In this document: positions 7,573 to 24,021 of the stretch, piece after piece
How the letters are laid out: each line of letters opens with the position of its first letter
Position numbering within the stretch: position 1 is the first letter of the stretch
DNA from: a virus
Lineage: Duplodnaviria; Heunggongvirae; Uroviricota; Caudoviricetes
Virus record (IMG/VR): IMGVR_UViG_2778261064_000003
Location: 1-41,713 of that record
Length of the DNA: 41,713 bases
Strand: one strand, 5' to 3'
Notes under the pieces: generated by a model
Told to the model about the DNA's origin: nothing
The model's input: only the letters and a program-made list of their open reading frames with translations
The model's database searches: none
Made by a program: the position numbers and the translations under genes

Positions 7573-7768
7573 GCTGTTTCTCCAGTTGCTTTATCAGGCG
7601 GAACAACTGCCGCAGGGGCAGTTGTTCCAGGTACTGAACGCTGAATCTCTGGGACAGGTTAACCAGCAGGTTCATCAGTGCCGCTGCCAGCGGCATCAGT
7701 TCGCCCCCGCGTTGCCACCTCCTCAAGCATTTCATCCAGCGCCGCCGCTTTCGTGCTGATAAGCTCAA
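7559..7768 (-). other. Alternative-frame ORF overlapping the 3' end of the chaperone gene and ending 14 nt inside the tape measure gene; candidate frameshift extension
   Basis: Open frame of 69 codons with helical, Leu-rich sequence (LMNLLVNLSQRF...) in the +1/-2 frame relative to the chaperone. It fills the 86-bp gap between chaperone stop and tape measure start. Confidence 0.35.
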
Positions 7769-8054
7769 GGTCTGCCGGGTGGAGCATTCGCAGCTGTTTC
7801 ATGTCCAGCGGACCGGGGATATTGCCGATTGACGCAACCTGACGGCGCATCATTTCCAGTCCCATCAGCACTTCAGAACAGTAGGCCACCGCCTTTCCGT
7901 TCCCGCCCATGACGACGCGTTCTGCGGCCAGTTGTGCATCAATCACGTCACTGGCGGTCAGTTCGCGCAGCTTCACGGTTTTATGCAGGGTTTCATCTGC
8001 CGTGCCTTTGCCGGTCAGAAGCCCGTGTTTCAGTTCAAATGTCATTTCAGCCAT
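7659..8054 (-). CDS. Tail assembly chaperone (Mu gp41-like)
   Basis: 131-aa ORF between tail tube and tape measure genes, the conserved chaperone position. Confidence 0.6.
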   Translation of the reverse strand: MAEMTFELKHGLLTGKGTADETLHKTVKLRELTASDVIDAQLAAERVVMGGNGKAVAYCSEVLMGLEMMRRQVASIGNIPGPLDMKQLRMLHPADLELISTKAAALDEMLEEVATRGRTDAAGSGTDEPAG

Positions 8055-8055
8055 G

Positions 8056-8412
8056 TCACACCTTCACGCATTTTTCACCGATAAAGTTGGCACTGATGGT
8101 GCCGGAATCCTCGTCCAGCTCCGCCGGGTTATCCGTGGCTGAACCTGTCATCATGTAGTTCAGGCCGTTGTCGCCGTAGAACATCACCGTGACGTCTTCC
8201 CAGCTGCTGATTTCAATCACGTCCATATCCGCTGCCGCCGCAATGGTCACTTTGATGGACGGCGAGGCCATCTTGCTGGAGATGCCCCAGACCTTGCCGC
8301 CGCCCATATGCTGGGTGCGGCTGAAGCCGCCCGGATTCAGTATGGATTTCCCCTCGGTTTTAATTTCGCGGCCATTCACGCGAATGGTCGCCATGCCAAG
8401 AATTTTTGCCAT
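8056..8412 (-). CDS. Tail tube protein (Mu M-like)
   Basis: 118-aa ORF directly downstream of the sheath gene. Confidence 0.7.
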   Translation of the reverse strand: MAKILGMATIRVNGREIKTEGKSILNPGGFSRTQHMGGGKVWGISSKMASPSIKVTIAAAADMDVIEISSWEDVTVMFYGDNGLNYMMTGSATDNPAELDEDSGTISANFIGEKCVKV

Positions 8413-21636: not shown

Positions 21637-21640
21637 AAAA

Positions 21641-21681
21641 GCACCATGAAGCAGATTTAAACGTGGTCTGCTTCATGGTGC
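21641..21681. promoter_or_regulatory. 15-bp perfect inverted repeat GCACCATGAAGCAGA-N11-TCTGCTTCATGGTGC immediately upstream of the lysin start
   Basis: Seen directly; ends 5 nt before the lysin start codon. Confidence 0.5.
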
Positions 21682-21690
21682 CGGAGGCAT

Positions 21691-21714
21691 AAAAAAAGCC
21701 GGATTTACCGGCTT
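21691..21714 (-). terminator. Rho-independent terminator-like hairpin, second copy of the element at 13957..13980
   Basis: Seen directly: identical 24-nt sequence AAAAAAAGCCGGATTTACCGGCTT (plus strand), with about 35 nt near-identical including flanks. Confidence 0.6.
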
Positions 21715-21720
21715 CATTGA

Positions 21721-22170
21721 TTAAGGGCGTCGTGGCGGACGACGAACGGGGTGAGGCAGGTTCGGGGAGTGGTAAAACAAATCCGGCTGGTATTTATTAC
21801 GCTCCAGACGCCGCATCCGTTTGATGGCCTTGTAGACGGTTTTATACGTCACTCCGTAACGCTGAACCAGTTCAGGAATATTATGGCCGTTAAAATCACG
21901 CCAGATACGCATATCCCGGACAAGATTCTCCAGAATATTCCCCCTCGGAACATAAACCTGCATCCCGCCGATATGGCGACAAATCGCCACAACCAGCTCA
22001 AGGGAATGGGCAGGGTCTGCGCCAATCCGGGCCAGCTCTTTACGCAGCAGTGCGTTCAGTTCAGAAAGTAACGCCGGATAAGCGGTGTTTTCCTGGTAAT
22101 CATGAAGGTATTCCAGAACGCTGTCGTCCCGAAGGTCTTCGAATAAATCCTGCTCTTTCATCTGTTTCAT
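21721..22170 (-). CDS. Mor/C-family transcriptional activator
   Basis: 149-aa ORF just upstream of the lysin gene; size and C-terminal basic helix-turn-helix-like region as in Mu Mor/C. Confidence 0.6.
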   Translation of the reverse strand: MKQMKEQDLFEDLRDDSVLEYLHDYQENTAYPALLSELNALLRKELARIGADPAHSLELVVAICRHIGGMQVYVPRGNILENLVRDMRIWRDFNGHNIPELVQRYGVTYKTVYKAIKRMRRLERNKYQPDLFYHSPNLPHPVRRPPRRP

Positions 22171-22718
22171 ACAGCAATTCTCCCGCTGTTTCGTGCGCGG
22201 GCATATGCACTGGTCAGTGCATCATATCCGCGTAGTTCCCGCCCGGATGGGCTTGCAGGTAACGGCACACCATGTCGGGCAAAGGCTTCCCGGATGCAGC
22301 GCATGTGCCACTGCTTGAGCGTTTTGAGCACAATCTGTAACGATTCCCCGTGACACCAGGCCAGCGTGGAAACACCCTGACCGCCATTACGTCTGGCCGT
22401 CAGGCGTGCAACGTATTTGTCCAGCGCGACATCGCTGCCATCAGCGACAAAGCCATCCTGAAACATCTGCTGCCAGATTTTGTAAATCTTCTCGCGTGGT
22501 GTGACATGCCCCTTAAAGCGACGGCGGGGATGTTTTTTCTGCTTCTTAAAACCGCGCTCTTTCATGGCATCGAGCACCAGTTCCAGTTGTGCGACGGTCA
22601 GCTCGCGGCAACTGGTCTTGCCTGTGCACTGCACCAGAAAGGCGCGGTAAGTGTCATCGTCGAGTTGTAGATCACGACGGGCGACATGAATTAATTTAAT
22701 CAGGGATGTGCGATTCAT
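22167..22718 (-). CDS. GemA-like early protein (Mu gp16, DUF1018-like)
   Basis: Position immediately upstream of the Mor-like gene; start set at MNRTSLIKL (ATG 22718) with a GGAGGT RBS. Confidence 0.5.
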   Translation of the reverse strand: MNRTSLIKLIHVARRDLQLDDDTYRAFLVQCTGKTSCRELTVAQLELVLDAMKERGFKKQKKHPRRRFKGHVTPREKIYKIWQQMFQDGFVADGSDVALDKYVARLTARRNGGQGVSTLAWCHGESLQIVLKTLKQWHMRCIREAFARHGVPLPASPSGRELRGYDALTSAYARARNSGRIAV

Positions 22719-22791
22719 TATCGTACCTCCGGAAAAGGGGGCGGTGCGGCAACACCGCCAGAATCCACTCACTAAACAGAGGAAGCTTTTT

Positions 22792-23058
22792 ATGAAAAAC
22801 AGTGAACAACCTTATGATGTTGCAGGGTATACCATTGCCTCAAGGTTGCTGATACTCCTTGTCAGAAAGGGGCTGATTACCGCAGAGGAAGGAAAAACAA
22901 TCCTCAAATCCGCTGCAGTCGTAGCTGCAGAGGCTCCGGTATTGAGAACAACGAATGATTCCGCCCTGCAAATATCGCAGCTAATCACTGAAACCATCAG
23001 TTTGTTAGACCAAGATCCTGATGAATATCAAAAGCCTCAGCCATCTGAGCATCCGTAA
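22792..23058 (+). CDS. Hypothetical 88-aa protein encoded on the opposite strand within the early region
   Basis: ATG at 22792 preceded by GAGGAAG RBS; convergently overlaps minus-strand ORF 22997..23311 by 62 nt. Confidence 0.45.
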   Translation: MKNSEQPYDVAGYTIASRLLILLVRKGLITAEEGKTILKSAAVVAAEAPVLRTTNDSALQISQLITETISLLDQDPDEYQKPQPSEHP

Positions 23059-23311
23059 GAATATCTTTATTTGATAGCCCCAGCCTGCGACGAATGTATT
23101 CCTCGCGGGCTGCTTCATTTTGTAGCGCCACGGCAGCTTCCACCTGGTTCATTTCACGGTTAATAATGCTCCGGACTTCTCTGGCGGTGAGGTCATGCTC
23201 AATACCATATTTAACGATATCGTGCATACGTTCCAGCATCTTTAAATTAGCCATGACGCCATCAATATCAACTGGTGTGAATTTCATTTCTTTATCTTCA
23301 TGTTTATTCAT
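22997..23311 (-). CDS. Hypothetical protein
   Basis: 104-aa ORF in the early-region gene string. Confidence 0.45.
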   Translation of the reverse strand: MNKHEDKEMKFTPVDIDGVMANLKMLERMHDIVKYGIEHDLTAREVRSIINREMNQVEAAVALQNEAAREEYIRRRLGLSNKDILTDAQMAEAFDIHQDLGLTN

Positions 23312-23486
23312 TTCTTAATACCTCTTCGCAATAAAAGATTTCACTGGGATAACGTTTTTGTATGCGCTCCATCACCTGCATACATGCCTGTTCTGTGGGC
23401 CAGATTTTTTCCGTTACCGGAATGGCATCGCAGGCATCATTCCCGCAGGTGCCAACCAGCAGGACAAAGCCAGTTGACTTAATCAT
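23304..23486 (-). CDS. Hypothetical small protein (possible lipoprotein-like N-terminus)
   Basis: About 60 aa from MIKSTGFVLLVGTC...; start overlaps the upstream stop by 8 nt. Confidence 0.4.
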   Translation of the reverse strand: MIKSTGFVLLVGTCGNDACDAIPVTEKIWPTEQACMQVMERIQKRYPSEIFYCEEVLRNE

Positions 23487-24021
23487 GTTCACTGACTTCC
23501 TGTGTTGCTGCCGGAGCTGGTGAATAATCAAGAATGAGATAGCGCATGACGTGGCCGGTGATATTCCAGCCACTGGAACCACAAATAAAACGTCCCAGCC
23601 GGATATCGATATACGCCATCACAAAACGGGGCATCCCCTGTTTGCACATCTCGTCATCCACTTCAGCAACGATGTAAACCGACTCGCAGGTCAGTACGCC
23701 TGTCGCAAATTCTTTTACCAGTGCCGGAATGGCATTGCCTTCCAGCCAGGGCAAAGAGCGGCGGAACGCGCACCATTGAGCATCATCAACATCGGGGTGC
23801 TCCGTTGTTGCGTTTCGTATTACTGGCGGCGTCGGACGAGGGCGCGGAACGTCATAAAATCCGTTGCATTCAGTGAGAACTCCGGCATCAACCGCATCAC
23901 GCAGGAAATACACCATTGAGGAAGGTGGCATCTTCATTTTTTCAGCCAGAACGCCACAGGTCAGACGGCCGTAAACCTGTAATAATGTGCTGACGCCGCT
24001 CAGAACTTTTGCATTAATCAT
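23479..24021 (-). CDS. Hypothetical protein
   Basis: 180-aa ORF downstream of gam. Confidence 0.5.
   Translation of the reverse strand: MINAKVLSGVSTLLQVYGRLTCGVLAEKMKMPPSSMVYFLRDAVDAGVLTECNGFYDVPRPRPTPPVIRNATTEHPDVDDAQWCAFRRSLPWLEGNAIPALVKEFATGVLTCESVYIVAEVDDEMCKQGMPRFVMAYIDIRLGRFICGSSGWNITGHVMRYLILDYSPAPAATQEVSEHD

Follow-up and report, generated by a model that had tools for sequence, protein, structure and literature searches.

A probable orthologue of phage Mu gene 15 in an optional slot between gp14 and gemA of Mu-type prophages

Background

In the RefSeq genome of bacteriophage Mu (NC_000929.1), gene 15 (Mup15/gp15, NP_050619.1) encodes a protein of 88 amino acids (aa) at complement 7896..8162; it is oriented against the early genes and shares 62 nucleotides (nt) with gp14 (7655..7957). 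The frame was already present as the putative open reading frame (ORF) F-134 in the 1991 record of the Mu left end. The current GenBank record of Mu, AF083977.1, whose update is credited to Jacobs-Sera and Hatfull (PMC9239132), has dropped gp15 and shows instead a 55-aa ORF on the early strand, Mu_54, at 7960..8127. Two public annotations of Mu therefore conflict over positions 7896..8217, one with gp15 and the other with Mu_54 and a semi-early promoter. Here we describe the corresponding region of a Mu-type prophage in a 41,713-nt stretch of viral DNA (IMG/VR record IMGVR_UViG_2778261064_000003; the whole stretch is called the window below), where an 88-aa ORF on the plus strand lies between the minus-strand genes gp14 and gemA.

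Some functions of the semi-essential early region of Mu, cim and arm among them, are defined genetically and are listed with no link to individual ORFs (PMC4553209). Outside the Mu group, a working analogy for gp15 is provided by the Pseudomonas transposable phage Fc02, in which olg1 and gene 10 are overlapping genes on opposite strands of the early/regulatory region, and lysogens transcribe the one that lies on the non-early strand, which excludes other phages (PMC9936078). The two loci share an opposite-strand gene overlap in the early/regulatory region of a transposable phage. They have no sequence relationship, however, and the Fc02 pair lies next to the repressor and ner rather than gemA. 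Expression and exclusion were shown experimentally in Fc02.

Results and Discussion

A probable orthologue of Mu gene 15

The prophage in the window has its early, lysis and structural genes all on the minus strand, in the order Gam-like gene, gp11-like, gp13-like and gp14-like genes, a gap, gemA, a Mor/C-family activator and a GH108 endolysin. Major features of the locus are summarized in Table 1. The non-early strand carries just two genes, the repressor and the plus-strand ORF in the gap. An earlier account of this DNA, made without database searches (the sequence-only reading), had remarked on the near-exclusive minus-strand orientation, and the same is seen in the closely related prophage of E. 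coli PSS-15, where only the repressor and the gp15 ORF lie on the opposite strand. It had also placed the ORF, its ribosome-binding site (RBS), the 62-nt overlap with gp14 and a nearby inverted repeat, and all of these agree with the sequence and the ORF list.

When phage genomes were searched with tblastn, the 88-aa product found an opposite-strand match in Mu at 7902..8162 (52.9% identity over 87 aa, 99% coverage, E=1e-21). Its residues 1-86 align with positions 1-86 of the 88-position phrog_8747 profile, an end-to-end match with E=6.2e-26, and phmmer aligns the protein with the Mu-type representative of the family at E=7e-18. The coding sequence (CDS) is identical to that of WP_079916120.1, annotated in E. 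coli PSS-15 by the NCBI Prokaryotic Genome Annotation Pipeline (PGAP). The window gene and Mu gp15 (phrog_8747) are alike in their length of 88 aa, their position and orientation, the 62-nt overlap, the adjacent hairpin and the place of the Shine-Dalgarno (SD) sequence; with 53% identity over the full length, they differ only by sequence divergence. The sequence-only reading took Mu to lack a gene of this orientation at this place; RefSeq Mup15 shows otherwise. The window prophage itself belongs to a sister lineage of Mu, with a single Mor/C-type activator followed directly by the GH108 endolysin.

The gene is annotated in the same layout in SfMu, in the Yersinia phages Tongde, vB_YpM_5 and vB_YpM_6 and in many E. 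coli prophages, including one of the W type. The opposite-strand location, with gp14 on one side (overlapping at the 3' ends) and gemA on the other, was found in NC_000929.1, SfMu, Tongde, an E. coli W-type prophage and the Salmonella loci, and in every relative carrying the gene the same frame is open at the same position. The overlap measures 62 nt in Mu, 56 nt in the Salmonella lineage and 53 nt in phage D108, whose ORF is described below.

Taken together, the plus-strand ORF is probably an orthologue of Mu gene 15. On this reading it is a genuine coding sequence, an accessory gene that Mu-type phages of Enterobacteriaceae can do without, in a polymorphic slot bounded by gp14 and the gemA leader. 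The gene is already known as an annotated ORF with no assigned function; it is a catalogued optional gene and not a novel type of module. Its value as a discovery is small, as RefSeq (Mup15 of Mu) and PHROGs have listed it for years, and the exact protein is in PGAP. The new points are modest: comparative support for gp15, an unannotated allele in D108, and variants in which the slot is empty.

The coding strand

The conflict between the two Mu annotations makes it necessary to ask which strand codes. The Mu_54 counterpart in the window is a 61-aa minus-strand ORF, and it could be the real gene, translated by coupling to gp14 in the early operon, with the plus-strand ORF as its non-coding shadow. 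Its ATG overlaps the gp14 stop codon (TGATG), a gene on the early strand requires no additional promoter, and its codon score (-0.21) exceeds the -0.48 +/- 0.09 of typical shadow frames; it is also the ORF that replaces gp15 in the current GenBank annotation of Mu. We nevertheless consider this explanation improbable on the following comparative grounds.

Three lineages were compared: the window and its close E. coli relatives (A), Mu, SfMu, Tongde and E. coli W (B), and prophages of Salmonella enterica (C). Protein identity across them is about 45-53%, and the gp15 frame is free of stop codons in all three. The Salmonella lineage lacks an ATG in the Mu_54 frame and has an additional stop codon inside it; the gp14-gemA gap there holds no minus-strand ORF of more than 46 aa. 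Frame statistics were taken over the 68 codons outside the gp14 overlap. Variable columns number 38, 30 and 56 at codon positions 1, 2 and 3 (of 68 each; chi-square p=0.014). The gp15 and Mu_54 frames are antisense to each other and have their third codon positions in common, and because these wobble positions coincide, periodicity alone cannot tell the two frames apart.

Other measures favor gp15. In comparisons between lineages, the ratio of nonsynonymous to synonymous substitution rates (dN/dS) is 0.19-0.37 in the gp15 frame, 0.21-0.49 in the Mu_54 shadow frame and about 0.6-2 in the other frames, and the gp15 frame has the lowest ratio of the six in every between-lineage pair. Amino acid replacements are also more radical in the shadow frame in all of these pairs, with a mean BLOSUM62 score of -0.41 to -0.84 as against +0.14 to +0.27 in the gp15 frame. 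The peptide YDVAGY (codons 8-13) is invariant, and the only changes between lineages in its codons are synonymous third-position changes. In Mu these codons lie past the stop codon of Mu_54, so that Mu_54 leaves this pattern unexplained, and the stops of the Mu_54 frame are the antisense of gp15 tyrosine codons. The substitution patterns indicate that gp15 is under purifying selection in its own frame.

Signals for translation point the same way. A purine-rich SD sequence stands at the same place in Mu (AGAGGA), the Salmonella lineage (GAAGG) and D108 (AAAGGAAA). The Mu_54-type start, in contrast, has no SD sequence in the window, and its annotated RBS in Mu is just 3 nt; nor does the Mu_54-type ORF have a significant PHROG match. 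We think it very likely that gp15, and not Mu_54, is the selected frame, and the comparative evidence thus backs the older opposite-strand call in the conflicting Mu annotations. With an open and conserved frame in the relatives, the proposal of the sequence-only reading that this is a real opposite-strand gene with its own SD sequence, convergently overlapping an early neighbour, has held up.

It might be argued that both strands code in the Mu and window lineages, gp15 and the Mu_54-like ORF forming a fully overlapping antisense pair. In two lineages each ORF has an ATG and an open frame, and the stop-start overlap with gp14 suggests coupling. However, the Mu_54 frame has been lost in the Salmonella lineage with the conservation of gp15 unaltered, and an open antisense frame with common wobble positions is a frequent by-product, whose stops in this case sit exactly at the gp15 tyrosine codons. 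An antisense pair of genes is accordingly very improbable in our view.

The gp15 protein was modeled with AlphaFold2 on a 7-sequence alignment. The model is a three-helix bundle with a mean predicted local distance difference test score (pLDDT) of 76.5, and confidence drops only in the last 18 residues (pLDDT 51-66), which are encoded by the overlap with gp14 and are also poorly conserved. The protein is acidic by residue count (12 Asp/Glu and 8 Lys/Arg), and no signal peptide or membrane segment was seen by reading the sequence, with no predictor run. It is thus predicted to be a small acidic three-helix bundle with a loose tail, and the tail may represent an overprinted, loosely constrained extension. 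The Mu_54-like product gave a pLDDT of 49 in a single-sequence AlphaFold2 prediction, which is not a like-for-like comparison with the alignment-based model of gp15.

Several observations weigh against gp15 as a functional gene of its own. The codon usage of gp15 is atypical, at 0.01-0.05 bits per codon compared to 0.35 +/- 0.16 for the long genes of the phage, or about 2 standard deviations below them; gp15 scores above Mu_54, neither is typical, and the codon score leaves the choice of frame undecided. The contrast in dN/dS is modest, as the shadow frame has its third positions in common with gp15, and the curators of the current GenBank record of Mu picked the same-strand ORF. A consensus scan found no sigma-70 promoter upstream of the gp15 ORF. 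The best candidate from a more lenient matrix, TTAATC-17-TATCGT, scores 7.6, and random 300-nt stretches have a median of 5.8 and a 90th percentile of 8.2. Matrix scans of four lineages revealed nothing conserved, although an activator-dependent promoter is beyond the reach of sequence scans. There is no conserved downstream terminator either; the sole terminator-like site on the plus strand, at 23386..23400, is not conserved in Mu. Fold searches with the gp15 model return only generic helical (three-helix) bundles, which makes any functional assignment an inference, and we found no open paper reporting the expression or function of Mu gp15. Finally, the family is tiny: a phmmer search of 1.84 billion proteins yielded 5 representatives at 50% identity and one doubtful match. 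A profile that included the D108 allele added no lineages beyond E. coli, Shigella, Salmonella and Yersinia-phage sequences, and a scan of genome contigs confirmed no further relatives.

In E. coli 06-00048, an intact 88-aa gp15 ORF was missed by PGAP, though it is annotated in sister genomes. In the same genome the gp14 homologue (locus L001, 2486..2812) has lost its stop codon and is extended by 4 codons (108 aa).

A polymorphic slot between gp14 and gemA

Phages D108 and Mu_3F6 have no gp15. In the same slot, which in D108 is a 377-nt gap that appears empty in the annotation, each carries an unannotated 119-aa ORF on the opposite strand that matches phrog_38610 (Table 1). In both phages this ORF is preceded by an SD sequence and by the same hairpin, and it shares 53 nt with the 3' end of gp14. 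Direct comparison of the D108 and window proteins by BLASTP is not significant (E=0.29). Nevertheless, both match phrog_32893 over their first two helices (E=1e-7 for the window protein and E=5e-7 for the D108 ORF), and the two proteins align along their full length. The D108 ORF thus appears to be a remote homologue, or allele, of gp15: slot, strand, SD sequence, hairpin, gp14 overlap and N-terminal helix pair are shared, and the differences are a 26-residue acidic N-terminal extension and its absence from the annotations of the D108 record.

The slot can also be empty. In the plaque-forming Yersinia phage vB_YpM_3 (locus L031, 2013..2065) and in an E. coli JCKP02 prophage (locus L028, 1519..1575), about 20 nt separate the gp14 stop codon from the conserved hairpin, and gp15 is missing its RBS together with codons 1-68. 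The junction falls within a short ATCAG repeat that flanks the absent segment of about 220 nt. Since vB_YpM_3 lacks the gene, gp15 is dispensable for a plaque-forming phage. Given the homologue in D108 and viable phages without the gene, the gp14-gemA junction can be regarded as a hot spot for optional opposite-strand genes, a place where Mu-type phages may keep host-interaction or anti-phage functions.

These variants bear on whether gp15 and gp14 might form a toxin-antitoxin or antisense-RNA module, a possibility raised by the sequence-only reading, in which the complementary 3' ends (62 nt in the window) would control a toxic product. A convergent overlap of 53-62 nt is indeed present in all lineages carrying the gene. 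However, gp14 persists unchanged in vB_YpM_3 and JCKP02, where gp15 is deleted; as gp14 is kept there, neither gene needs the other for viability. The two genes are convergent, hence not co-transcribed, their products are both predicted to be soluble and helical, and searches of Pfam, PADLOC and NCBIfam gave no match to a toxin or antitoxin family. We regard such a module as highly improbable, and this part of the sequence-only reading is not supported.

Its description of the ORF as an accessory, moron-type gene fares better, though only in part. Among collinear Mu-type phages the slot is filled, differently filled or empty, as would be expected of an accessory gene, and gp15 resembles phage morons in this polymorphism of presence, absence and allele, in an orientation independent of the surrounding operon and in its atypical codon usage. 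Unlike morons, it has no recognisable promoter or terminator of its own, and its G+C content (0.475) is not distinct from that of its neighbours (0.45-0.53).

Two further variants were seen in Salmonella. In an assembly of Salmonella Aberdeen (locus L024, 2736..3944), an IS256-family transposase gene (PF00872) is inserted at the gp15/gp14 junction, where it replaces the gp15 C-terminus and parts gp15 from gp14. In S. enterica prophages (loci L020 and L021, 1552..1887, plus strand), a 111-aa opposite-strand ORF with no PHROG match lies between gemA and the Mor gene; given this ORF, opposite-strand accessory genes appear to have more than one site open to them in the early region.

The inverted repeat and the gemA leader

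The inverted repeat between gemA and the plus-strand ORF occurs once in the window, compared to an expectation of 0.03. Among 32 related loci that were fetched, 31 have the repeat with an unchanged stem, always just upstream of the gemA SD sequence and including loci without gp15; its loop varies. The remaining locus, PhiR68_1, has a compensated outer pair (G-C to A-T, or A-U in RNA). Read on the early strand, the repeat folds into a stable 7-8 bp GC hairpin in all lineages. Its tail reads CCCUUUUCC in the window and CCCUUUCC in Mu, with 3-4 U, and the gemA GGAGG comes next; in the Salmonella lineage (UCUUUUUC) and PhiR68_1 (UUUUUAAA) the tail has more U. A terminator scan did not call this hairpin, its short U tract falling below the threshold.

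The sequence-only reading had assigned the repeat to a divergent region shared by gp15 and gemA. Because phages without gp15 retain it ahead of gemA, it belongs instead to the gemA leader, where it reads as an early-strand GC hairpin with a C/U tract. It is best read as a putative weak terminator/attenuator, or an RNA-stabilising hairpin, of the early transcripts, and is thus a candidate attenuator of early read-through into gemA-mor. An invariant stem, a variable loop and one compensated pair would also be displayed by a palindromic protein-binding site, and the repeat could be of that kind. One such site was considered and rejected: with the dyad as a Mor/C-type activator site centred near -43.5, coordinates imply a transcription start at or inside a CDS on either strand, and no -10 element is found.

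It may also be asked whether the gap contains any gene. It could be only a regulatory leader, with a semi-early gemA promoter and a terminator region, in which the ORF arose by chance. The Mu record AF083977.1 annotates a semi-early promoter at 8151..8217, over the gp15 start and the hairpin, and the region can be deleted in a viable phage. Yet a leader accounts neither for the excess of third-position substitutions over 68 codons and a dN/dS well below 1 nor for an ORF maintained at 45% identity. The hairpin and leader, moreover, are retained where the ORF segment of about 220 nt is absent, and leader and ORF are therefore separable. The chance that there is no gene on either strand seems to us very slight, and we retain gp15 as the probable gene.

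Expression and possible function

Profile searches of gp15 against Pfam, NCBIfam, PADLOC and PDB gave nothing above threshold, and no signature of a defence system was seen. The SHOCT-like family PF22746 (SHOCT-like_DUF2089-C) scores 16 bits against a cut-off of 27 (E=0.009) over residues 23-39 only, a sub-threshold match that may serve as a lead for an oligomerisation helix and does not indicate family membership.

A model of how gp15 is expressed and acts can be drawn up, though we think it doubtful as a whole. Because the early promoter Pe cannot transcribe gp15, the gene would have to use a weak or regulated promoter of its own. Expression would be most plausible while Pe is inactive, either in the lysogen or in the first moments of infection. 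As the protein has no enzymatic, DNA-binding or membrane features, it might act by binding a protein of the host or of a competing phage. On induction, convergent transcription driven by Pe would shut gp15 off. Early transcripts reading through gp15 in antisense would then run into the hairpin with its C/U tract just ahead of gemA, and some of them would end there.

A more specific and unlikely extension of this model would make gp15 and its D108 allele a prophage-expressed factor of superinfection exclusion, anti-defence or immunity control, possibly cim or arm; that gp15 is one of the cim/arm-type functions of Mu is speculation. The gene would then form a small lysogeny/lysis switch with the Pe operon, to which it is convergent, just upstream of a leaky terminator before gemA-mor. 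In the lysogen, transcription of gp15 would damp read-through into gemA-mor, and on induction transcription from Pe would silence gp15.

Other features of the locus

Table 1. Features of the gp14-gemA region in the window and opposite-strand ORFs in the same slot of related phages
Feature	Position	Strand	Evidence or remark
Mor/C-family activator	21721..22170	minus	
gemA, gp16 family, 183 aa from ATG at 22718	22167..22718	minus	PF06252
gemA SD sequence GGAGG	22726..22730	minus	sequence; kept in all lineages
Inverted repeat GGCGGTG-cggcaa-CACCGCC (RNA stem GGCGGUG-N6-CACCGCC)	22740..22759	minus	perfect; between gemA start and plus-strand ORF
SD sequence GAGGAAG of gp15-like CDS	22779..22785, 6 nt before ATG	plus	sequence
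gp15-like CDS, 88 aa	22792..23058 (ATG at 22792, stop ends 23058)	plus	probable Mup15/gp15 orthologue; phrog_8747
Mu_54 counterpart, 61-aa ORF	22812..22997	minus	ORF list; very likely an antisense shadow of gp15, not a gene
Convergent 3'-3' overlap of gp15-like and gp14-like CDSs, 62 nt	22997..23058	both	ORF coordinates
gp14-like early gene, 104 aa (Mu gp14, formerly E15)	22997..23311	minus	ORF list, phrog_6075; function unassigned
gp13-like ORF, 60 aa	between gp11-like and gp14-like genes	minus	
gp11-like gene	23479..24021	minus	PF25754
D108 119-aa ORF	NC_013594.1 7853..8212 (locus L029, 1654..2013)	opposite to early genes	in 377-nt 'empty' gp14-gemA gap
Mu_3F6 119-aa ORF	LR595867.1 8015..8371	opposite to early genes	

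A mechanical ORF call extends gemA upstream to a GTG at 22772 (201 aa), over the hairpin and SD sequence (22719..22772, minus strand). Judging by the annotations of homologues and by the GGAGG motif (22726..22730), translation starts instead at the ATG at 22718. GemA of PhiR68_1 is annotated with a comparable over-long N-terminus.

Downstream of gemA, the prophage has a single Mor/C-family gene and then directly the lysis genes, with no distinct middle operon and no C gene. On the minus strand, 3' of the Mor/C-type gene, stands a canonical terminator (AGCCGG-TAAAT-CCGGCT with a T7 run). It is followed by a perfect 13-bp dyad, CACCATGAAGCAG-N13-CTGCTTCATGGTG, directly before the ATG of the GH108 endolysin (both within 21640..21715). 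This dyad region may be an activator-dependent late promoter region.

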